A stretch of 64,000 nucleotides of DNA, taken from assembly GCA_007117515.1 (NCBI GenBank), contig SKGQ01000037.1, positions 23,286 to 87,285 of the forward strand, in the 5' to 3' direction. Positions 50,698 to 64,000 of this stretch are shown here, one piece after another. A program made the translations under genes and the position numbers. Source of the DNA: Ectothiorhodospiraceae bacterium (GTDB lineage Bacteria; Pseudomonadota; Gammaproteobacteria; Nitrococcales; Aquisalimonadaceae). The notes beneath the pieces are model-generated. The model was given only the letters and a program-made list of their open reading frames with translations, ran no database searches and had not been told where the DNA came from. How positions within the stretch are numbered: position 1 is the stretch's first letter; every line of letters starts with the position of its first letter.

Positions 50698-53358
50698 ATG
50701 GCTGCAGTACCGGAGGATATCGATCCGCAGGAAACGCAGGAATGGTTGGAGGCCCTGGAGGCCGTCATTGCCAACGAAGGCGCGGAACGCGCCCATTACC
50801 TGCTGGAATCCCTCGTTGACAAGGCTCGCCGCCGCGGCGGCCACATTCCCTTCAAGGCCACCACGGCCTACCTGAATACCATCCCACCGCACATGGAGAA
50901 GCGCTCGCCGGGTGATCATGCCCTGGAATGGCGGCTGCGCTCGTTCATCCGCTGGAACGCGATGGCTATGGTGTTGCAGGCGAACAAGGAACGCGAGGGC
51001 ATCGGCGGTCATATCGCCAGCTTTGCCTCCAGCGCCACGCTCTACGACATCGGCTTCAACCATTTCTGGCATGCGCCCAGCGATGAGCATGGTGGTGACA
51101 TGGTGTTCATCCAGGGGCATTCAGCGCCTGGCATCTACGCCCGCTCCTATCTGGAGGGCCGCCTGACCGACGAGGACATTCGTGGCTTCCGTCAGGATGT
51201 CGGTGGCACCGGTGTCACCTCCTATCCGCATCCCTGGCTGATGCCTGATTACTGGCAATACCCCACAGTGTCCATGGGGCTGGGGCCGATCACTGCGATC
51301 TACCAGGCCCGTTTCATGAAGTACCTGCATGACCGCGGCATCGTCGACACCTCGGGTCGCAAGGTCTGGGCCTTCATGGGCGACGGCGAGATGGATGAAC
51401 CGGAATCCCTCGGTGCCATTGACGTGGCCGCTCGCGAAGGGCTGGACAACCTGGTGTTCGTGGTCAACTGCAATCTGCAGCGACTGGACGGCCCGGTACG
51501 TGGCAATAGCAAGATCATCCAGGAACTCGAAGGCGACTTCCGCGGCGCCGGCTGGAACGTGCTCAAGGTGATCTGGGGCTCGGGCTGGGACAACCTGCTA
51601 GCCAAGGACCGCACCGGCCTGCTGCAGAAGCGCATGGAGGAATGCGTCGATGGCGAGTACCAGAACTTCAAGGCCAAGGGTGGCGCCTACACGCGGGAGC
51701 ACTTTTTCGGCAAGTACCCGGAGTTGAAGGATCTGGTTTCCAACATGTCCGACGACGAGATCTACCGCCTGTCCCGCGGCGGCCATGATCCGCACAAGGT
51801 CTATGCCGCCTATCACGCGGCGGTGAATCACACCGGCCAGCCCACGGTAATCCTGGCCAAGACCGTCAAGGGTTATGGCATGGGTTCCTCGGGCGAGGGC
51901 CAGAATATCACCCACCAGCAGAAAAAGATGGGGCTGGAGGCACTGAAGGAGTTCCGCGACCGCTTCGACATCCCGGTGGCCGACGAGGATCTGGAGAAGA
52001 CCCCGTTCTACAAGCCCGCCGAAGACAGCCCGGAGATGCAATACCTGCGCGAGCGGCGCAAGGCCCTGGGCGGTTACCTGCCGCAGCGGCGGCGCGAGGC
52101 GGAGCCGCTCAAGATCCCCGAGCTGTCGGCCTTAGATCTGCTGCTGAAGGACACCGGCGAGCGCGAGATGTCGACCACGATGGCCTATGTCCGGATCCTG
52201 TCGATCCTGGCGCGGGACAAGAACCTGGCCAAGCACATCGTGCCCATCGTCCCCGACGAGGCCCGCACCTTCGGCATGGAAGGCCTGTTTCGGCAGCTCG
52301 GCATCTATTCCTCGGTGGGCCAGCTCTACACCCCGGAGGACGCCGACCAGTTGATGCTCTACAAGGAGAGCAAGAACGGGCAGATCCTGCAGGAGGGCAT
52401 CAACGAGGCCGGTGCCATGAGTTCCTGGATCGCCGCCGGCACCGCCTATTCGAACCATGGCGTGAACATCATCCCGTTCTACGCCTTCTATTCGATGTTC
52501 GGCTTCCAGCGGATCGGTGATCTGGCCTGGGCCGCCGGCGACATGCGGGCCCGCGGCTTCCTCATGGGCGGCACCGCCGGGCGCACGACGCTGAACGGCG
52601 AAGGGCTGCAGCACCAGGATGGTCACAGCATGCTGCAGGCAGCCATGATCCCCAACTGCATCGCCTACGATCCCACCTTCCCCTACGAGATGGCAGTAGT
52701 GATCCAGGACGGCCTGCGCCGGATGTATCAGGAACAGGAAAACGTCTACTACTACATCACGATGATGAACGAGAACTACGGTCAGCCGGCCATGCCCAAG
52801 GGCGCCGAGGAAGGCATCCGCCGTGGCATGTACCTGTTCAGGGCCGGCGGACGCGGCAAGACCCGCGTCCAGCTTCTGGGCGCGGGCACGATTTTCCGCG
52901 AGGTGATCGCCGCCGCCGAGTTGCTGAAGAAGGACTGGAAGGTGGACGCCGATCTGTGGGGCTGCCCCTCGTTCAACGAACTGCGGCGCGACGGCATGGC
53001 CACGGAGCGCTGGAACATGCTGCATCCGGACAGGAAGCCGAAGACCTGCTGGGTGCAGGATCAGCTCAAGGACCGCAAGGGCCCGGCGGTGGCAGCCACG
53101 GATTACATGCAGGCCTATCCGGACCAGATCCGGCCGTACCTGGGCGAGCGCCGCTTCATGACCCTGGGTACCGACGGCTTCGGTCGTTCGGATACCCGGG
53201 AGCAGCTGCGCAGGTTCTTCGAGGTGGACCGCTACTACGTCACCGTGGCCGCGCTCAAGGCACTGGCCGACGATGGCGAGATCGAAGCGAAAACCGTGTC
53301 CGCGGCAATAAAGAAGTACGGCATCGACCCGGAAAAGCCGCTGCCGACCACGGTCTGA
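50698..53358 (+). CDS. aceE: Pyruvate dehydrogenase E1, homodimeric type
   Basis: DIDPQETQEWL, PTVSMGLG, GDGEMDEPES, GEGLQHQDG. Confidence 0.97.
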   Translation: MAAVPEDIDPQETQEWLEALEAVIANEGAERAHYLLESLVDKARRRGGHIPFKATTAYLNTIPPHMEKRSPGDHALEWRLRSFIRWNAMAMVLQANKEREGIGGHIASFASSATLYDIGFNHFWHAPSDEHGGDMVFIQGHSAPGIYARSYLEGRLTDEDIRGFRQDVGGTGVTSYPHPWLMPDYWQYPTVSMGLGPITAIYQARFMKYLHDRGIVDTSGRKVWAFMGDGEMDEPESLGAIDVAAREGLDNLVFVVNCNLQRLDGPVRGNSKIIQELEGDFRGAGWNVLKVIWGSGWDNLLAKDRTGLLQKRMEECVDGEYQNFKAKGGAYTREHFFGKYPELKDLVSNMSDDEIYRLSRGGHDPHKVYAAYHAAVNHTGQPTVILAKTVKGYGMGSSGEGQNITHQQKKMGLEALKEFRDRFDIPVADEDLEKTPFYKPAEDSPEMQYLRERRKALGGYLPQRRREAEPLKIPELSALDLLLKDTGEREMSTTMAYVRILSILARDKNLAKHIVPIVPDEARTFGMEGLFRQLGIYSSVGQLYTPEDADQLMLYKESKNGQILQEGINEAGAMSSWIAAGTAYSNHGVNIIPFYAFYSMFGFQRIGDLAWAAGDMRARGFLMGGTAGRTTLNGEGLQHQDGHSMLQAAMIPNCIAYDPTFPYEMAVVIQDGLRRMYQEQENVYYYITMMNENYGQPAMPKGAEEGIRRGMYLFRAGGRGKTRVQLLGAGTIFREVIAAAELLKKDWKVDADLWGCPSFNELRRDGMATERWNMLHPDRKPKTCWVQDQLKDRKGPAVAATDYMQAYPDQIRPYLGERRFMTLGTDGFGRSDTREQLRRFFEVDRYYVTVAALKALADDGEIEAKTVSAAIKKYGIDPEKPLPTTV

Positions 53359-53435: not shown

Positions 53436-54809
53436 ATGGCGACGACAACCATCAAGGTGCCCGACATCGGCGACTTCGACGAGGTCGATGTCATCGAAGT
53501 GCTGGTAGCGGAAGGTGACACCGTGGAGGCGGAACAAAGCCTCATCACCCTGGAATCCGACAAGGCGACCATGGAGGTGCCGGCGGAGAGCGCCGGCAAG
53601 GTCAGCAAGGTGCTGATCAAGGTCGGCGACAAGGTGGCTGAAGGCACGGCCATTCTCGAGCTGGAAACCGACGGCACGGATGCATCGGACAAGACCGAGG
53701 ATACGCCGGCCGCATCGGAACCCGCCGAAGAAAAGGAAGAAAAGAAGGATCCGGCGGCCGACACCCCGGAAACCGATACGCCCAAAGCGGCCGAGCCTGC
53801 GGTCACCAAGGCGACCGATCACCAGCTCTACCAGCTGGAGGCCGATGCCGAGCCGGTGCCGGTCCAGAGCATCGATAGCGAAGGGCACCGTCTCGCCCAT
53901 GCCTCTCCGGCGGTCCGGCGCTACGCCCGCGAGTTGGGCATCGACCTGTCCGGGCTGTCCGGGTCTGGTCGCAAGGGACGGATCATGCGCGAAGACGTGC
54001 AGCAGTTCGTCAAACAGGCGGTGAGCCAGACGGCCGGTGGCGGCACGACGGCCGCACCGGCGGCAGGGGGCATGGGCATCCCGCCGATCCCGGAGGTGGA
54101 CTTCAGCAAGTTCGGCGAGGTCGAGGAACAGCCACTGTCCCGGATCAAGCAGAAGTCCGGGCCGCATCTGCACCGCTCCTGGCTCAACGTGCCGCATGTC
54201 ACCCAGTTCGACGAGGCCGACATCACCGAGCTTGAGGCCTTCCGCAAGGCCGAGAAAGCCGCCGCCGAGAAAGCGGGCGTCAAGCTCACGCCGCTGGCCT
54301 TTCTGGTCAAGGCTGCGGCCGCCGCCCTCCGGGCCTTTCCGAACTTCAACAGCAGCCTGAAGCCGGATGGCTCGGCCCTGATCGTCAAGCACTACATCAA
54401 CGTCGGCGTTGCGGTGGATACACCCAATGGCCTGGTGGTGCCGGTGATCAAGGATGCCGACAGGAAGGGCATCTTCGACATCGCCCGCGATCTCGGCGAG
54501 ATCAGCGTCAAGGCCCGCGACGGCAAGCTGGGCCCCGGCGACATGCAGGGTGGCACCTTCAGCATCTCCAGCCTCGGCGGCATCGGCGGCACGGCCTTCA
54601 CGCCCATCGTCAATGCGCCGGAGGTGGCGATCCTCGGTGTCTCCCGCTCGGACATGCAACCGAAGTGGAACGGTCAGGAATTCGAGCCGCGGCTGATGCT
54701 GCCGCTGTCGCTGTCCTATGACCATCGGGTCATCGACGGCGCCGCCGCGGCCCGCTTCACCACCCATCTGAGCGGCCTGCTGGGGGATCTGCGGCGGCTG
54801 GTGCTTTAG
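53436..54809 (+). CDS. aceF: Dihydrolipoamide acetyltransferase (E2), single lipoyl domain
   Basis: [30 protein letters not shown]. Confidence 0.96.
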
Positions 54810-55126: not shown

Positions 55127-56902
55127 ATGGCGAACGAAACGATCAAAGTCCCGGACATCGGCGATTTCGATGAAGTCGATGTCATTGAAGTGCTGGTTGC
55201 GGAAGGCGACGAGGTCGCCGCGGAACAGTCGCTGATCACCCTGGAATCCGACAAGGCGACCATGGAAGTGCCGGCGGACCGGGCCGGAAAGGTCAGCAAG
55301 ATGCTGATCAAGGTCGGCGACAAGGTCGCCGAGGGGACGCCGATCCTGGAGCTCGAGGCCGCCTCCGATGCCGGAGAGGCCGACAAGCCCAAGTCCGGTG
55401 AACAGTCTTCCGAGGACAAGCCGGCGGCGCCGGAAAAGACTGCTGCAAAGCCCAGGCAGGACCAGGCCACGCCGGCGCCCGGCGATGCTCCTTCTGACAC
55501 CGACTGCGACCTGGTCGTGGTCGGCGCCGGACCTGGTGGTTATACCGCCGCCTTCCGCGCCGCCGATCTGGGGCTGAAGGTGATCCTGATCGAGCGCTAT
55601 CCGAGCCTCGGCGGCGTCTGCCTGAATGTGGGCTGCATTCCGTCCAAGGCCCTGCTGCATGTGGGCCACATCATGGACACCGCGGCGGCCTTCAAGGACC
55701 ACGGCATCATCTTCAACAAACCGAAGATCGAGCTGGACAAGCTCCGCTCCTGGAAAGACTCCGTGATCGGCAAGCTCACCGGCGGGCTCGCCGGCATGGC
55801 GAAGAAACGCAAGGTGGAAACCGTGACCGGTGTCGCCCGCTTCACCGGCAGCCATTCGCTCAGCGTCAAGGGCGAGGACGACGAGCGCGAGATCCGCTTC
55901 AAGCACGCCATTGTGGCCGCCGGTTCGCGGCCGGTCATGCCGCCCGGCATGGACCTGGATGACCCGCGGGTCATGGATTCCACCGACGCACTGAAGCTGG
56001 AAGACATCCCGAAACGGCTGCTGGTCATCGGCGGTGGGATCATTGGCCTGGAGATGGCCACCGTCTACGCGGCCCTGGGCTCGAAGATCACCGTGGTCGA
56101 AATGCTGGACCGGATCATGGTTGGCGCCGACAAGGACCTGATCCGACCCTACGAAAAACGTATCCGCGGCCGCTACGAGAACATCTTCCTCAAGGCCAAG
56201 GTCACCGGCATGGAAGCGCAGAAAAAAGGCATCAAGGTGTCCTTCGAGGGCGAGGGCGTGCCGGACACCGACACTTTCGACCGGGTGCTGGTATCGGTGG
56301 GGCGGCGGCCGAATGGTGATCAGCTCAATCTGGAGGCCGCCGGGCTGGAGCATGATGGCGGTTTCATCAGCGTCGACGATCAAATGCGCAGCAGCGTGCC
56401 GCACATTTTCGCCATCGGCGACATCATCGGTCAGCCGATGCTCGCCCACAAGGCGTCGCATGAAGGCAAGGTGGCAGCGGAGGTCATCGCCGGCGAGAAA
56501 AGCGCATTCGATGCCCGGGTGATTCCGTCGGTGGCGTATACCGATCCGGAGGTGGCCTGGGTCGGACTGACCGAAGAACAGGCCAGGGAGCAAGGCATCG
56601 AGGTGGAGAAAGGTCTGTTCCCCTGGGCCGCCAGCGGTCGCGCCCTGGCCATGGGCCGCGACGAGGGCCTCACCAAGCTGCTGTTCAGCAAGGAAACCGG
56701 GAGGCTGGTCGGCGGCGCCGTGCTCGGCCCCAATGCCGGGGATGTGATTGGTGAAATCTGTCTTGGCATTGAAATGGGCGCAGAAGCGGCCGACATCGGC
56801 CTCACCATCCACCCGCATCCGACTCTGATCGAGACCGTGGGCATGGCGGCCGAGGCAGCGGAAGGGACGATCACCGACCTGTACATGCCGAAAAAACGTT
56901 GA
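55127..56902 (+). CDS. lpdA: Dihydrolipoyl dehydrogenase with N-terminal lipoyl domain (PDH E3, PdhL type)
   Basis: Lipoyl domain [11 protein letters not shown], linker, then [13 protein letters not shown] and HPHPTLIE. Confidence 0.95.
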   Translation: MANETIKVPDIGDFDEVDVIEVLVAEGDEVAAEQSLITLESDKATMEVPADRAGKVSKMLIKVGDKVAEGTPILELEAASDAGEADKPKSGEQSSEDKPAAPEKTAAKPRQDQATPAPGDAPSDTDCDLVVVGAGPGGYTAAFRAADLGLKVILIERYPSLGGVCLNVGCIPSKALLHVGHIMDTAAAFKDHGIIFNKPKIELDKLRSWKDSVIGKLTGGLAGMAKKRKVETVTGVARFTGSHSLSVKGEDDEREIRFKHAIVAAGSRPVMPPGMDLDDPRVMDSTDALKLEDIPKRLLVIGGGIIGLEMATVYAALGSKITVVEMLDRIMVGADKDLIRPYEKRIRGRYENIFLKAKVTGMEAQKKGIKVSFEGEGVPDTDTFDRVLVSVGRRPNGDQLNLEAAGLEHDGGFISVDDQMRSSVPHIFAIGDIIGQPMLAHKASHEGKVAAEVIAGEKSAFDARVIPSVAYTDPEVAWVGLTEEQAREQGIEVEKGLFPWAASGRALAMGRDEGLTKLLFSKETGRLVGGAVLGPNAGDVIGEICLGIEMGAEAADIGLTIHPHPTLIETVGMAAEAAEGTITDLYMPKKR

Positions 56903-57007
56903 AGGTTCGATACTGCAGGTTCAACGTGGCGCAAGCGCGCCCGGACTCCACCACTGCGCAACTGTTGATTCAGTCGCGTCATGTTGAACACTGGACGATT
57001 TCGCCGC

Positions 57008-58000
57008 ATGAGCTACGCACGAATCATAACGACTGCCCATTACGTTCCAGAACGCCTGGTCAGCAACGCCGAGCTGAACGCGCATTTCACGGCACTGGGC
57101 AAGCCGGAAGTGATCGGCAAGTTCGAGGCCAGTAGCGGCATTCTCCAGCGCTGGTACGCTGCGGAAGACTGGGCCACATCGGACCTGGCCCTGCCGGCGG
57201 CGCGGCAGGCCCTGGAACGCGCCGGGCGACGACCTGAAGACGTCGATCTGATTATCGTCGGCACCGATTCACCGGACTACATCACCCCCGCTACCTCGAC
57301 GGTACTGCAACACAAGCTGGGGGCGCGCAACGCCGGCACCTTCGATGTCGGTTGCGCCTGCGCCTCGTTCCCCACGGGGATCGCCACTGCGGCCGGGCTG
57401 TTGCAAGGAGGCACCGGCCTGCGCACCGTGCTGGTGGTGGGCGCATACCTGATGCGCAAACTGGCCGATCCGGATGACCCGATGATCTTTTTCTATGGCG
57501 ACGGCGCCGGTGCCGCGGTAATGGAACTGGGCGATGCGCCCGGCTATATCGGAGCCGCGTTTCGTGCCGATGGTGCCTACGCGAAGAGCTGGGGTCTGTT
57601 CGCCGGTGGCACAGCGGAACCGGCCTCGGCGGAGGCCGTGGCCGCGGGTCGGACACAGGTGCGACTGGTTGAGCGTTATCCACCCGAGATCAATGACGAT
57701 GGCTGGCCCCGGCTTTTTGATCAGCTGTGCGCCAACACCGGCATCAACGTCGATCAGATCGATCACCTGATCTTTACCCAGGTCCGTCGCAATACCATCG
57801 AGCTGGTTGCCGACCGCATCGGTCTGCCCCGGGACAAGGCACCACTGATCATGGACCGCTGGGGTTATACAGGATCCGCCTGCATCCCGATGGCACTCTC
57901 CGATGGCATGGCCAATGGGCGCATGCGGACCGGTGATCTGGTGGTCATGATCGGTTCCGGGGTCGGCTACAACCAGGCCGCGGTGGCGCTGCGCCTTTGA
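57008..58000 (+). CDS. 3-oxoacyl-ACP synthase III-like (FabH fold) enzyme with non-canonical active site
   Basis: FDVGCACASF with catalytic Cys; HQAN replaced by TQVR and GNT by GYT. Confidence 0.8.
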   Translation: MSYARIITTAHYVPERLVSNAELNAHFTALGKPEVIGKFEASSGILQRWYAAEDWATSDLALPAARQALERAGRRPEDVDLIIVGTDSPDYITPATSTVLQHKLGARNAGTFDVGCACASFPTGIATAAGLLQGGTGLRTVLVVGAYLMRKLADPDDPMIFFYGDGAGAAVMELGDAPGYIGAAFRADGAYAKSWGLFAGGTAEPASAEAVAAGRTQVRLVERYPPEINDDGWPRLFDQLCANTGINVDQIDHLIFTQVRRNTIELVADRIGLPRDKAPLIMDRWGYTGSACIPMALSDGMANGRMRTGDLVVMIGSGVGYNQAAVALRL

Positions 58001-58673: not shown

Positions 58674-58878
58674 GGCGCCCCCCGGCTTTGCCCTGTCCTG
58701 CCAGTTTGCTACCGACCGGCCTGACAGCCAAACTCGAGTGAAGGAAGCAGCCGTGACTGCCAGATGACTCGAGTCCGACCTCTGGCGCGGACACGGCAGG
58801 AACCCGGCACTTCCCTACCATGAAAAGAACCGCCGGCCCTTTCCTGATGGATTCGTGCCGGCAGCGCGGGTGAGCAAC

Positions 58879-61800
58879 ATGCAGCACAGCGCCGAGGAGT
58901 ACAAGCGCCGCAGCATCAACGCGGTCGTTGAGCGTATTCACCAGAAGTGGCCAGAGGACACGGCGCCGCTGCTGGAAACCCTGGTTGCTCAATACTTCCG
59001 TCGCGTTCCGGCGGATGATCTGCAGCAGCGCAAGCCCGACAATCTTTACGGAATGACCGCGGCGCACTGGACGCTGGGTCGGCAACGCCGTTCCGGGCTG
59101 GTTCGCACTCAGGTGCTCAACCCGACGCCGGACCGGCATGGCTGGGAATCCAGCCACACCATCCTGCAGGTGGTAATGGAGGACCAGCCGTTCCTGATCG
59201 ATTCGATTGCCATGGCGCTGAACCGGCGCGGTCTGACCATTCATCTGACGGTCCATCCCATCGTCCGGGTAAAACGGGACGCGGATGACGAGATCTGCGA
59301 GCTGTTTGCCGACGACAGCAACGACGACGCCCAGGCCGAGGCCTGGATGCACTTCGAAGTCGACCGGATCGCCGGCGAAGACGAACGAAAGGCCTTGCAG
59401 AACGATGTCAAGACCGTCATCGAGCAGTGCCGCATCGTGGTCAACGACTGGCTGCCGATGCGGCAGCGCATGCAGGCCGTCCTAGAGGCGCTAGGCAAGC
59501 CCGGCGACCAGGAGGAGCAGGAGTGTCATGCCTTCCTGCAGTGGCTGATCAAGGATCATTTTACCTTCCTGGGTTACCGTCACTACAGGTTGCAGAAACA
59601 GGGTCGGGAGTATCAGCTGAACGGCGATCCGGATTCGGCCCTGGGGTTGCTTCGGGATAGCGACGGGGACCGCAGCACCCGACTCAGCAAGTTGCCGAAA
59701 GATGTCCGTGCCCGCGCCATGCAACCCGATCGCCTAGTGCTGACCAAATCGGCGAATCATTCACCGGTCCACCGGCCGGGATACATGGATCATGTGGGCA
59801 TCAAGGAACTCGACGACAAAGGCCGGGTTGTCGGCGAGCACCGCTTCCTCGGCCTTTACACGTCGGCCGCCTATAGCCGCAACCCGCGGGATATTCCGCT
59901 GCTCCGGCGCAGGCTGGATGCGGTGATGCGGAAGGCGGCGCTTCCGCGCAACAGTCATTCCGCCAAGGCACTCAGCCACCTTCTGGAAACCTACCCCAGG
60001 GACGAACTCTTCCAGAGTGATGTCGACACCCTCTATCGCATCGGCATGGGAATCCTGCACCTGCAGGAGCGGCAGCGGGTGAGGCTTTTCGTCCGCGAGG
60101 ACACCTACCGCCGTTTCGTCTCCTGCCTCGTCTATGCCCCGCGGGACCGTTATGACAGTAGCGTGCGCCGGCGTATGCAGAAGGAGCTGGAGCAGGCCTT
60201 CGCGTCCACACGCAGCGAGTTTTCGGTGAACCTGTCCGAGGCGGTACTGGCCCGCATTCATTTTCTCCTGCATGTCCCCGACCACCGCATACCCGAGGTT
60301 GATCTGCAGGCGCTGGAACATCGGCTGGCGCATGCCGCCAGGGACTGGTGCGACGAACTGCACGAAGCGCTGCTCGATTACTACGGGGAAGCCGACGGCA
60401 ACCACCTGTTCGAGCTTTATGGTCAAGCCTTCAGCGCCGCATACCGGGAGGACACCAGCGCGCGTACCGGCGCTCAGGACGTTGCCCGTCTGGAGTCACT
60501 GGATCCCGACCAGGATCTGCAAATCATGCCTTACCGACCGCTGGAGGCGCCGGACAACCTGATCCGCCTCCGGCTTTACCGCTTCGGCAATGCCATTCCG
60601 CTATCCGATGCGCTGCCACTGTTGGAGAACATGGGTCTGCGGGTGGTGGATGAACGCCCGTATGCGATCCACCTGGGCGCCGAAACCCACTGGATCCATG
60701 ACTTCGGACTCGAAGACGTAAGCCAGACCGCACCCGAACTTGACCAGGTCCGGGAGCTGTTCGAAAGCGGCTTTGATGCGATCTGGCATGGCCGGGTGGA
60801 GAACGATGGTTTCAATCGCCTGCTGCTGGGGGCACGACTGAGCTGGGCGGAGATCATCATACTGCGGGCCTATGCACGTTACCTGCGGCAAACCGGCACG
60901 ACGTTCAGTCAGGCCTACATCGAGGACACGCTGGTCGCGAACCCGCGGATCACCCGGCTACTGGTGCGGCTGTTCCACTACCGCCTGGATCCGGATCGGA
61001 CCGACAACAAGCGGGCCGCGCGGGTGGCGGAGCAGATCGAGTTGGCGCTGGCCGATGTACCGAGCCTGGACGAGGATCGAATCCTGCGACGCCTGCTGGC
61101 GGCAATGCAGGCGACCCTGCGCACCAGCTTCTATCAGGACACCGGCGAAGAGGAGGCGCTGAGCCTGAAACTCGCGCCGGCGGCTATTCCGGACATGCCC
61201 GAGCCGCATCCGGCGTTCGAGATCTACGTCTATTCGCCGCGGGTCGAGGGGGTACATCTAAGGGGCGGCAAGGTTGCCCGTGGCGGCCTGCGCTGGTCGG
61301 AACGCAAGGAGGATTTCCGCACCGAGGTGCTGGGTCTGATGAAGGCGCAGATGGTGAAGAACGCGGTCATCGTCCCGCTTGGGGCGAAGGGCGGGTTCGT
61401 CGCCCGACAGTTGCCCGAGGAACGCGAGGCCCAGCAGGAAGAAGTACGTGCCTGCTATCGTCTGTTCATCCGTGCCTTGCTGAATATCACAGACAATTAC
61501 CCCGGTGGCGAGATTGCCCCGCCTCCAGAGGTGGTTCGTCAGGACGGGGATGATACCTATCTGGTTGTCGCCGCCGACAAGGGCACGGCAACATTCTCGG
61601 ATACGGCCAACGCCATCGCTGCCGAATATGGCTTCTGGCTTGGCGACGCCTTCGCGTCAGGCGGCAGCAATGGCTACGACCACAAGAAAATGGGGATTAC
61701 CGCGCGCGGCGCCTGGGTGGCGGTCCAGCGCCATTTCCGCGAAATGGACCATGATATCCAGAGCACGCCGTTCAGCGTTGTCGGCGTTGGCGACATGTCC

Positions 61801-63693
61801 GGCGATGTATTCGGCAATGGCATGTTGCTGTCACGCCAGATCCGGCTGCTTGCCGCCTTCGACCACCGGCACATCTTTCTGGATCCGGATCCCGATCCGG
61901 AGGTCAGCTTCCAGGAACGGCAACGGTTATTTGGCCTTCCCCGCTCGTCCTGGGATGACTACGACCGAGGCCGACTGTCAGCCGGTGGCGACGTGTTTTC
62001 GCGCAGCGCCAAATCCGTGGAGCCGTCGGCCAGAGCCTGCCAGGCCCTTGGCATCGAACCGGGAGCGCGTACCCCGGCCGAACTGATGCAGGCAATCCTG
62101 CGGGCGCCGGTGGATCTGTTCTGGAACGGCGGCATTGGCACCTATGTGAAGGCCAGCAGTGAAACCCATGCCAATGTGGGTGACCGCAGCAACGATGCGG
62201 TCCGCGTGGACGCCAGCGAGCTGCGTTGCCAGGTGGTCGGCGAAGGCGGCAATCTTGGCGTTACGCAGCGGGCGCGCATCGAGTTTGCGCAGGCCGGCGG
62301 CCGCATCAATACCGATGCCATCGATAACGTTGGCGGCGTCGACTGCTCCGACCACGAGGTCAATATCAAGATCCTGTTGAACGGCCTGGTGGAGGCCGGC
62401 GAACTCACCGAGCCCCAGCGCAACCAGCTGCTGGCCGATATGAGCGACGAAGTGGCCGCGCTGGTTCTGCTGGACAATGACCGGCAGACCGAATCCCTGA
62501 GCATCATGCAGGCCAGGGCACCACGACTGCTGGCAGAGCAGGCCCGCCTGATCCGCGACATGGAAGCCTCCGGCCGTCTGAACCGGGAGCTGGAAGCCCT
62601 GCCGGGCGAGCGCCAGATCGACGAACGTCTGGCGCTTGGCGAAGGCCTCACCCGGCCCGAGATGGCCGTCCTTCTTGCCCACGCCAAGCTGGCTGGCTAC
62701 GAGTCCCTGATCAATAGCAAGTTGCCGGATGATCCGGACCTGCAGGACACGCTGCACAGCTACTTTCCAGGCGCACTCTGCGAACGCTATGGCCAACATC
62801 TTCCCGGTCATCGGCTGCGGCGCGAGATCATTGCCACCCAGGTCTGCAACGAATTGTTCAACCGGCTCGGCGCCAGCGTGCTGTTCCGTCTCAATGAGAA
62901 AACCGGGGCCACCGCCGAAGCCATTGCGCGCGCCTATTTCGTCAGTCGCCAGGTATTCCGGCTCGAAGTGCTGTGGTCGGATATCGACCGGCTTAATCAT
63001 CAGGTCTCCGGGCAGACCCAATCCGCCCTGCGGCTGGCAGTACTCGATGTGGTCGAGGCCGTCATGCTCTGGCTGGTGCGGCATTTCGACGGTCAGCAGG
63101 GCATTGCCCAGGCGGTGGAACGCCTGCAGCAGCCGGTTCAGAACCTGGACGAGGCGCTGCCGGACCTGCTGCCGGCCGAAGATCACGCCTATCTCGCCGA
63201 CTGCACCAATAGCTGGCTGGATGCCGGCGTTCCCGAGGTCCTGGCGCAGCGAATCGTTCGGCTTGAGCCGCTGTCCTCGGCGCTGGATATCGCGCTGATG
63301 GCTGAAGACACCCAGGCCTCCCTGACCCTGGCTGCCGAACTCTACTTCCGCCTGGCGGCGGAACTGGACCTGCGCTGGCTGTCGGCCAACATCCAGGCGC
63401 TGCCCGGCGATGATCCGTGGCAGGAACGCTTCCGCAGCGGTCTGCAGGACAGTCTCGGTGGGGCCAGACGGCTGCTGGCAACGGCGTTGCTGCGGGAGCG
63501 GGACCAGGACGGTGAGGCCGCGGCTCTGATGGATGACTGGCGGTTGCAGCAGACCAAGGCCCTGCTGCGCCTGCAGCAGACAGTGCAGGATCTTCGCGCT
63601 GCCGGCACGCCGACCGCGGCGATGCTTAGCGTCACGGTGCAGGATTTGCAGGATCTGGCGGCACTTACGACCCAGGGCCATGCCGATGCCTGA
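58879..63693 (+). CDS. gdhB: Large NAD-specific glutamate dehydrogenase (GDH2 type)
   Basis: About 1600 aa; RGGLRWS, KNAVIVPLGAKGGF, AADKGTA, GYDHKKMGITARGAW, GEGGNLG. Confidence 0.95.
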   Translation: MQHSAEEYKRRSINAVVERIHQKWPEDTAPLLETLVAQYFRRVPADDLQQRKPDNLYGMTAAHWTLGRQRRSGLVRTQVLNPTPDRHGWESSHTILQVVMEDQPFLIDSIAMALNRRGLTIHLTVHPIVRVKRDADDEICELFADDSNDDAQAEAWMHFEVDRIAGEDERKALQNDVKTVIEQCRIVVNDWLPMRQRMQAVLEALGKPGDQEEQECHAFLQWLIKDHFTFLGYRHYRLQKQGREYQLNGDPDSALGLLRDSDGDRSTRLSKLPKDVRARAMQPDRLVLTKSANHSPVHRPGYMDHVGIKELDDKGRVVGEHRFLGLYTSAAYSRNPRDIPLLRRRLDAVMRKAALPRNSHSAKALSHLLETYPRDELFQSDVDTLYRIGMGILHLQERQRVRLFVREDTYRRFVSCLVYAPRDRYDSSVRRRMQKELEQAFASTRSEFSVNLSEAVLARIHFLLHVPDHRIPEVDLQALEHRLAHAARDWCDELHEALLDYYGEADGNHLFELYGQAFSAAYREDTSARTGAQDVARLESLDPDQDLQIMPYRPLEAPDNLIRLRLYRFGNAIPLSDALPLLENMGLRVVDERPYAIHLGAETHWIHDFGLEDVSQTAPELDQVRELFESGFDAIWHGRVENDGFNRLLLGARLSWAEIIILRAYARYLRQTGTTFSQAYIEDTLVANPRITRLLVRLFHYRLDPDRTDNKRAARVAEQIELALADVPSLDEDRILRRLLAAMQATLRTSFYQDTGEEEALSLKLAPAAIPDMPEPHPAFEIYVYSPRVEGVHLRGGKVARGGLRWSERKEDFRTEVLGLMKAQMVKNAVIVPLGAKGGFVARQLPEEREAQQEEVRACYRLFIRALLNITDNYPGGEIAPPPEVVRQDGDDTYLVVAADKGTATFSDTANAIAAEYGFWLGDAFASGGSNGYDHKKMGITARGAWVAVQRHFREMDHDIQSTPFSVVGVGDMSGDVFGNGMLLSRQIRLLAAFDHRHIFLDPDPDPEVSFQERQRLFGLPRSSWDDYDRGRLSAGGDVFSRSAKSVEPSARACQALGIEPGARTPAELMQAILRAPVDLFWNGGIGTYVKASSETHANVGDRSNDAVRVDASELRCQVVGEGGNLGVTQRARIEFAQAGGRINTDAIDNVGGVDCSDHEVNIKILLNGLVEAGELTEPQRNQLLADMSDEVAALVLLDNDRQTESLSIMQARAPRLLAEQARLIRDMEASGRLNRELEALPGERQIDERLALGEGLTRPEMAVLLAHAKLAGYESLINSKLPDDPDLQDTLHSYFPGALCERYGQHLPGHRLRREIIATQVCNELFNRLGASVLFRLNEKTGATAEAIARAYFVSRQVFRLEVLWSDIDRLNHQVSGQTQSALRLAVLDVVEAVMLWLVRHFDGQQGIAQAVERLQQPVQNLDEALPDLLPAEDHAYLADCTNSWLDAGVPEVLAQRIVRLEPLSSALDIALMAEDTQASLTLAAELYFRLAAELDLRWLSANIQALPGDDPWQERFRSGLQDSLGGARRLLATALLRERDQDGEAAALMDDWRLQQTKALLRLQQTVQDLRAAGTPTAAMLSVTVQDLQDLAALTTQGHADA

Positions 63694-64000
63694 CACCGTC
63701 GCCTTGGACTACAGACAGCATGGCGATTCCGCCCAGCCGACACTGGTCCTGCTGCATGGTTTGTACGGTTCGGCCAGTAACTGGGCGCGGATCGTTTCGA
63801 CCCTGGCGCAAGATTATCGGGTGCTTTCCCCGGACCTGCGGAACCACGGTGGCAGTCCGCAGCATGTGGATATGCGCTATCCGGCGATGGCCGCCGACGT
63901 ACTTGCGCTGCTCGACAGCCTGGACATCGAAAAGGCCCACATTCTCGGCCACAGCATGGGCGGCAAGGTGGCAATGCTGTGCGCCTTGCAATCGCCGCAG
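63686..64000 (+). CDS. Alpha/beta hydrolase (YbfF-like esterase), truncated by the window end
   Basis: My translation MPDTVALDY...LVLLHGLYGS...PDLRNHG...LGHSMGGKVAM, with nucleophile motif GHSMG; start overlaps the gdh end; not in the ORF track. Confidence 0.88.
   Translation, partial: MPDTVALDYRQHGDSAQPTLVLLHGLYGSASNWARIVSTLAQDYRVLSPDLRNHGGSPQHVDMRYPAMAADVLALLDSLDIEKAHILGHSMGGKVAMLCALQSPQ

Follow-up and report, generated by a model that had tools for sequence, protein, structure and literature searches.

Gene X, on the forward strand at positions 57008–58000 of the 64,000-nucleotide stretch analysed here (the window; contig SKGQ01000037.1 of an Ectothiorhodospiraceae bacterium, assembly GCA_007117515.1), encodes a protein of 330 residues (P0001) in which the known fold of FabH, the β-ketoacyl-acyl carrier protein (ACP) synthase III (KAS III), carries an undescribed active site. 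A Cys stands at the position of the FabH nucleophile, the catalytic His and Asn are replaced by Thr and Tyr, and the same replacements mark a separate clade of proteins, referred to below as the Thr/Tyr clade. We conclude that X is probably a non-decarboxylating, coenzyme A (CoA)-dependent enzyme that works through an acyl-cysteine. An earlier reading of the window made from its letters (the sequence-only reading) had proposed an enzyme for acyl-CoA condensation or transfer that does not decarboxylate and whose chemistry is undescribed, and at the level of class this remains the best reading; the tie to the pyruvate dehydrogenase (PDH) operon that it also suggested proved weak in the comparison with other genomes.

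The translation of gene X is uninterrupted and ends with a TGA codon at 57998–58000, so the frame is intact, as had been stated. A second in-frame ATG lies at 56981; the homologues align from residues 1–4 of the product starting at 57008. The protein contains the Pfam domains ACP_syn_III (E = 1e-14) and ACP_syn_III_C (E = 4e-24). An AlphaFold2 model calculated from 30 homologues has a pLDDT of 89.5 and a pTM of 0.88, and its best matches among the structures of the Protein Data Bank (PDB) found with Foldseek are FabHs, with TM scores of 0.80–0.84. X is 27–33% identical to FabH and has recognisable GDGAGA and glycine-rich loops.

Residues were placed with HMMER alignments to the FabH structures 4dfe (Burkholderia), 4ryb (Neisseria) and 9ka2 (E. 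coli-type) and independently with a MAFFT alignment of X to the canonical FabH of the same genome, and the two placements agree. The segment FDVGCACASF of X pairs with FD[VI]xAAC[AS]GF of FabH, which puts the invariant Cys118 (codon 57359–57361, forward strand as for all codons below) at the nucleophile Cys112; LIFTQV pairs with L[IV]PHQA, which puts Thr257 of the FTQ motif (57776–57778) at His244; and WGYTGSACIP pairs with HGNTSAASIP, which puts Tyr287 of the GYTGS motif (57866–57868) at Asn274. Both alignments therefore bear out the exchange of Cys-His-Asn for Cys-Thr-Tyr put forward in the sequence-only reading, and the three codon positions given there (57359, 57776 and 57866) were exact on re-translation. 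X also has Asp87 (57266–57268) at the position of FabH Thr81, Cys292 (57881–57883) at that of Ser279, and an extra Cys116 (57353–57355) two residues upstream of Cys118. Since Thr81 of FabH is one of the residues in the Cys112 and Gly306 contact network (PMC9040583), the aligned Asp87 very probably sits beside the nucleophile of X.

The replacements are not private to this strain, a possibility that the sequence-only reading had raised against itself. A protein search with X gave 5832 relatives, and in the nearest 120 of these, at 64–88% identity, the motifs [FL]TQ and GYTG[SA] are kept without exception (120/120). These homologues come from Ectothiorhodospiraceae, Aquisalimonas, Alkalilimnicola and Methylonatrum kenyense (86%), and further from Paucimonas, Oxalobacteraceae, one metagenome-assembled genome (MAG) of Xanthomonadaceae, and Thermoanaerobaculia; a scan of genome contigs added MAGs of Lysobacteraceae and Xanthobacteraceae and many more Acidobacteriota. 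In an alignment of 30 diverse members of the family, Asp87, Cys116, Cys118, Asn229, Trp233, Thr257, Gln258, Tyr287-Thr-Gly-Ser, Cys292 and Asn322 are invariant, and there is no invariant His. It should be noted that Cys116 is invariant within the family at 65–88% identity and variable in the wider clade.

The wider clade was reached by an exhaustive search of 1.84 billion cluster representatives, in which the full-length matches were aligned. Some 25 distant clusters at 33–45% identity carry the co-varying set, and about 20 full-length representatives in this range share Asp87, Cys118, Thr257-Gln258, Tyr287-Thr-Gly-Ser, Cys292, Asn229 and Trp233, a signature that is complete in X. Ten of the distant representatives were looked up; by their source names two of them come from Anaerolineales and Caldisericia MAGs, the rest being metagenome proteins. 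All canonical representatives in this alignment have His and Asn at the two exchanged positions. Position 87 is Asp in nearly every representative of the Thr/Tyr clade, whereas the canonical proteins have Ser, Thr, Val, Ile, Ala or Cys and never Asp; position 292 is Cys in nearly every intact clade representative, the Asn/Tyr variant P0155 with Ser being an exception, and Ser or Thr in nearly all canonical FabHs. The column of E. coli Arg249, which we take to be the ACP-docking arginine of that enzyme, holds Arg in almost every canonical sequence and varies within the clade. To judge by this alignment, four positions of the active-site region were changed together and then stayed fixed.

In a quick maximum-likelihood tree the family delimited at 65% identity forms one clade with 100% SH-aLRT support, and the canonical FabHs form a separate, fully supported one. 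There are three subclades, containing one family of the order to which the window belongs, the Acidobacteriota, and the remaining Proteobacteria; the copies from Burkholderiales and Alphaproteobacteria are nested within the gammaproteobacterial group. X was found in 33 of 41 genomes of the window's order, in four of its five families (0/7 genomes in the fifth), in none of 300 genomes sampled evenly from the rest of the phylum, and in 17 of 151 Acidobacteriota genomes, 12 with a copy at ≥61% identity and 5 with a member of the wider clade; these counts describe genome samples, in which a gene that was not found is not necessarily absent.

The ratio dN/dS of X to its two nearest orthologues is 0.06 and 0.12, with dS near saturation, so that X is under strong purifying selection, as the sequence-only reading had supposed from the intact frame. 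This bears on the possibility that X is catalytically dead and contributes structure or regulation to a complex, as PqsB or the PhlA-type partners do in thiolase-fold complexes, or that it is a simple acyl-CoA hydrolase. The loss of the canonical His and Asn would agree with such a role, the SCP-x-type thiolase encoded next to X in an acidobacterial operon (see below) could be the catalytic partner, and the KS III-like enzyme ChlB3 hydrolyses thioesters (PMC9573744). However, the Cys nucleophile and a set of polar residues at active-site positions are invariant over very deep divergence, the dN/dS values are not the pattern of a decayed site, an SCP-x thiolase was not found in this genome, and none of the annotated contexts contains a DUF35 scaffold protein. 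We regard a dead or purely hydrolytic X as unlikely.

X is additional to the true FabH of this organism and not the initiator of fatty-acid synthesis, because a canonical FabH is encoded elsewhere in the genome (2.4 Mb in 210 contigs, 97% complete). Contig C193 carries the only further KAS III gene, which is 32% identical to X and has the canonical motifs DISAACSGF, LVPHQAN and HGNTSAASIP; its neighbours match plsX, fabD, fabG and fabF by size and order, as in a plsX-fabH-fabD-fabG-fabF cluster. Two canonical thiolases and a PhaC are also encoded, which rules out X as the sole thiolase for polyhydroxybutyrate (PHB) synthesis.

With FabH (4dfe, 4ryb, 1hn9) X shares the fold, the domain pair and the position of the nucleophilic Cys. 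It differs from FabH in having Thr for His244, Tyr for Asn274, Asp for Thr81 and Cys for Ser279, in a PPEINDxGWP segment in place of the 'GNEVFK' loop, in an unconserved Arg249 position, and in the absence of fab, acpP or other ACP genes around it. The scores of X are below every NCBIfam FabH cut-off (NF006829, 194.6 against 249; TIGR00747, 172.5 against 292.1), no NCBIfam model reaches its cut-off on X, and a search of the Atlas matched generic KAS III clusters only. The databases label proteins of this family 'ketoacyl-ACP synthase III'; because the family lacks the residues and the ACP site that this reaction requires, the annotation is very probably wrong.

The genes around X in other lineages point to catabolism. 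In Acidobacteriota of the 65% family, X lies in an operon of TetR, a TonB-dependent receptor, a FabG-like short-chain dehydrogenase/reductase (SDR), X, an α/β-hydrolase, an AMP-ligase, an SCP-x-type thiolase and two further hydrolases. Contexts of the wider clade were obtained by scanning metagenome contigs with an alignment of its distant members, which gave 34 usable loci. An α/β-hydrolase is immediately upstream of X in about 27 of the 34, separated from it by −23 to +58 nt and frequently with an overlap, and an AMP-ligase immediately downstream in most; a second hydrolase, a MaoC-type hydratase and a major facilitator superfamily (MFS) transporter commonly come next. TetR accompanies the importer, for which either a TonB-dependent receptor, a Liv-type ABC system or a sodium:solute symporter (SSS) is encoded. 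The Paucimonas copy of X has on its flanks a 3-oxoacid-type CoA-transferase subunit, a 4HBT thioesterase, SDRs and an electron-transfer flavoprotein:quinone oxidoreductase (ETF-QO), and the Xanthobacteraceae copy is the last gene of a Liv-type ABC operon, with a gene of the acetyl-CoA hydrolase/transferase family after it. The constant core is thus a hydrolase, a CoA-activating enzyme and X. The best NCBIfam matches of the neighbouring hydrolases are enol-lactonases of the PcaD type, all below the cut-off. No gene for ACP, malonyl-CoA:ACP transacylase, polyketide synthase (PKS) or nonribosomal peptide synthetase (NRPS) was present in about 100 X loci.

These contexts gave further observations. 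An esterase of the PHB-depolymerase family (PF10503) stands upstream of the TonB-dependent receptor and heads the operon of the distant X homologue on the metagenome contigs of loci L125, L128 and L133, which hints at polyester or feruloyl-type ester substrates. Some genomes have tandem Thr/Tyr KAS III-like paralogues (L121 and L122, both metagenome, and L084); in L084, a Thermoanaerobaculaceae MAG, the whole X-hydrolase-AMP-ligase unit occurs twice in a row. A partnership of an SCP-x thiolase with a DUF35 protein, in the style of the archaeal thiolase/HMG-CoA synthase (HMGS) or PhlABC, was considered and rejected, the supposed DUF35 protein (132 aa) being a MaoC hydratase and a 416-aa neighbour an MFS transporter, and this genome having yielded no SCP-x thiolase.

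The same contexts weigh on the idea that X is an acyltransferase of secondary metabolism like CerJ or the ChlB enzymes, which would acylate a hydroxyl or amine group of a natural product with CoA or ACP as the acyl donor. The sequence-only reading had compared X with CerJ and ChlB6, and the comparison holds in kind: these enzymes use the KAS III scaffold without decarboxylative condensation, the Cys is retained beside a non-canonical triad, KS III-like enzymes with altered triads are known to act as acyltransferases (PMC9573744), and a ping-pong transfer through the Cys is plausible for both. It does not extend to the residues, since CerJ and ChlB3 use a Cys-His-Asp triad (PMC9573744) and the family of X has no invariant His but a set of Asp, Thr, Tyr and Cys. 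The PDB sequence matches of X at E ≤ 1e-10 include no structure of the CerJ type. Whereas CerJ, ChlB3 and ChlB6 belong to polyketide clusters with carrier proteins, the contexts of X are catabolic or those of central metabolism, dominated by importers, TetR and CoA-activating enzymes, with no PKS, NRPS, ACP or glycosyltransferase in about 100 of them, and X is near-universal and single-copy in four families of one order, unlike a gene of a biosynthetic cluster. A role of this kind is very improbable.

Among the other thiolase-fold enzymes, the thiolases (EC 2.3.1.9 and 2.3.1.16) belong to the same superfamily and work without decarboxylation, with CoA and a pair of cysteines; X, too, contains a second Cys, one specific to its clade, and the order of hydrolase, ligase or transferase, and X parallels that of PcaD, PcaIJ and PcaF. 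X is nevertheless not a thiolase by its sequence. It scores 20.8 bits with Thiolase_N (cut-off 26.4) and 18.5 bits with TIGR01930, it has neither the thiolase His nor the Cys of the C-terminal CxGGG-type loop, and its second Cys stands at a different position. As regards HMGS, X gives no match to Pfam HMG_CoA_synt at E ≤ 0.001, lacks the His of the Glu-Cys-His triad, matches the archaeal model NF003274 in its N-terminal half only (residues 41–172, 61.4 bits against 244), and is overall much closer to FabH. X may resemble HMGS in its motifs: the GTDS of X with Asp87 would match the GTE[ST] strand with the catalytic Glu, and the GYTGS and GSG of X would stand where HMGS has YTGS-like and GSG motifs.

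OleA is a non-decarboxylative condensing enzyme of the thiolase fold that keeps Cys-His-Asn together with a Glu of the partner subunit, and the hydrolase, AMP-ligase and SDR near X echo OleB, OleC and OleD. OleA structures, however, match X over residues 20–137 only (E about 1e-16), and the SDR is FabG-like and the ligase MenE/FadD-like. An Ole-type β-lactone/olefin cluster was rejected, as the residue set, these SDR and ligase types and the setting with importer and TetR disagree with it.

In the window, X follows the PDH operon, consisting of aceE (50698–53358), aceF (53436–54809) and lpdA with an N-terminal lipoyl domain (55127–56902), all on the forward strand, and it precedes c8 (P0121; 58056–58673, reverse strand), which encodes a 205-aa all-helical protein convergent with X, and gdh (58855–63693, forward strand) for a large NAD-specific glutamate dehydrogenase of 1612 aa. 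The spacer between lpdA and X (56903–57007, forward strand) is 105 nt long, from the lpdA end at 56902 to the ATG at 57008, and a site scan found no terminator-like or sigma-70-like site in it; the window annotation shows no ACP or fab genes nearby. On the spacer length, the lack of a terminator and the lack of ACP and fab genes the sequence-only reading was correct, and co-transcription of lpdA and X is plausible.

It had gone on to suggest that X may consume acetyl-CoA derived from PDH. As a functional part of the PDH operon, X would catalyse a non-decarboxylative condensation of acetyl-CoA or act on acetyl-dihydrolipoyl groups. In addition to the short co-directional spacer, the order aceE-aceF-lpdA-X recurs in several families of the window's order, including genomes of only 1.7–2.2 Mb, with 32–215 nt between lpdA and X, and the hydrolases adjacent to X elsewhere have weak matches to an AcoC E2 model of the α/β-hydrolase type. 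The adjacency is not specific to X, however: synteny within the order covers the whole region from two genes upstream of aceE through gdh to an α/β-hydrolase and a fusion of malic enzyme and phosphotransacetylase, and in three loci of the same order (L040, L042 and L045) X has no PDH upstream but keeps c2 (an α/β-hydrolase), c8 and gdh downstream. The spacer sequence is poorly conserved among relatives. Outside the order, in the loci examined, the homologues of X lie in operons with importers, hydrolases and a ligase or CoA-transferase and not beside PDH, except in L055. Because the whole block is syntenic, some relatives lack PDH and the spacer is not conserved, the adjacency to lpdA is weak evidence of shared function, and a PDH-linked role for X is improbable. 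In L055 itself, a MAG labelled Lysobacteraceae, X follows lpdA; the block may have been transferred, the binning may be wrong, or the taxonomic label may be in error.

From the contexts, the conserved residues and the fold we infer the following for the probable acyl-cysteine enzyme. X would be a cytoplasmic KAS III-fold enzyme of the homodimer type, in which the decarboxylating and enolate-stabilising machinery of FabH (His244 and Asn274) and the ACP-docking arginine have been replaced by a co-evolved active site common to the clade. Cys118 would act as the nucleophile that a CoA thioester acylates, and the enzyme would work without malonyl decarboxylation and without ACP. Thr257 and Tyr287 may serve as hydroxyl hydrogen-bond donors, with Asp87 next to Cys118 and Cys292 as a second cysteine. 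Across lineages X belongs to catabolic modules, in which it is accompanied by an importer, an esterase- or lactonase-like α/β-hydrolase and either an acid-CoA ligase or a CoA-transferase; a FabG-like dehydrogenase, a MaoC hydratase and an SCP-x thiolase can be present as well. The copy in this genome stands alone, its only retained partner being the helical protein c8, and it is probably transcribed by read-through from lpdA. Our best guess for the substrates is short hydroxy- or keto-acyl-CoAs from imported esters or lactones.

Two types of reaction come into question. The first, which we slightly favour while holding it tentatively, is thiolase-like retro-Claisen or Claisen chemistry on a β-ketoacyl-CoA. 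Asp87 or Cys292 might act as acid/base, the Asp and second Cys could supply the acid/base function that thiolases obtain from their second Cys, and Tyr and Thr might stand in for the His/Asn oxyanion hole. The second, a possibility we rate slightly lower, is a transfer in which acyl groups pass between CoA and an oxygen ester or alcohol. It would fit because KS III-like acyltransferases exist and because the cysteine of a thiolase-fold enzyme can accept acyl groups from oxygen esters, as OleA does from p-nitrophenyl alkanoates (PMC8180931).

Several points weigh against a non-decarboxylating, CoA-dependent enzyme, and against its thiolase-like form in particular. The reaction is one that we infer, as the sequence search of the PDB gave no entry within the Thr/Tyr clade and no assayed or otherwise characterised member was found in the literature. 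Trp32, Arg36 and Arg151, which we take to be the CoA-binding residues of E. coli FabH, are not conserved in X, so it is the genomic context that argues for CoA. A thiolase role would be partly redundant with the two canonical thiolases of this genome and, in Acidobacteriota, with the SCP-x thiolase of the same operon. Neither a c2-type hydrolase nor an SCP-x thiolase had a convincing match in this genome, and as ligase and SDR partners it offers only generic AMP-ligases and SDRs.

More speculatively, the histidine-free site (Asp-Cys-Cys with a Tyr/Thr oxyanion hole) might represent a new mechanistic class of the thiolase fold, with a reaction so far unassigned to this fold, recruited both to acidobacterial uptake operons and to the acetyl-CoA node of Gammaproteobacteria; we consider this possible but doubtful. 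In one example, oxygen esters such as hydroxy-acid oligomers would be cleaved by CoA-dependent thiolysis, so that the energy of the ester bond would be kept as acyl-CoA; another would be a His-independent retro-Claisen cleavage. The same enzyme would then operate in the nutrient-uptake operons of soil Acidobacteriota and at the acetyl-CoA node of haloalkaliphilic Gammaproteobacteria.

Most genomes of one gammaproteobacterial order and about one in ten of the Acidobacteriota sampled have a member of the family, and the co-varying change at four active-site positions throughout the clade offers a natural experiment on how the thiolase fold is re-tooled. The fixed place of the gene between a hydrolase and a CoA-activating enzyme in importer operons points to a step, so far undescribed, by which abundant and poorly cultured soil bacteria would break down esters or keto- or hydroxy-acids. 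As a soluble protein of 330 aa, X is a clean, expressible target with obvious point mutants.

The convergent neighbour c8 recurs next to X in Proteobacteria, and c8 and c2 are always adjacent to each other where both are present. The pair is convergent to X in most loci of the order that have it, co-directional (c8-c2-X) in Burkholderiales, and far from X in three genomes; one family has X without either gene, and this genome and its nearest relatives have kept c8 and lost c2. Only 24 homologues of c8 were found among 5.8 billion proteins, and it has no Pfam or NCBIfam match. Its model (pLDDT 88) is a helical bundle like those of TenA, heme-oxygenase-like and ferritin-like proteins, at a Z of about 13, a value that helical bundles can also reach by chance, and a Foldseek E > 0.01. 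A diiron heme-oxygenase-like oxidase was rejected, as only one His and one Glu are invariant and the ligand set is missing.

Some features of the flanking genes may be added. The lpdA product has 591 aa, with a lipoyl domain (residues 5–76) fused to dihydrolipoyl dehydrogenase, a form of E3 that is already known. The aceF product has 457 aa and one lipoyl domain, and those of the nearest relatives have 554–558 aa. After gdh an α/β-hydrolase gene begins on the forward strand (63720–64000) and runs past the end of the window (G000:C208:86986-87744); its product is 23–29% identical to the hydrolases that accompany X elsewhere, and in relatives the gene is followed by the malic-enzyme/phosphotransacetylase fusion.

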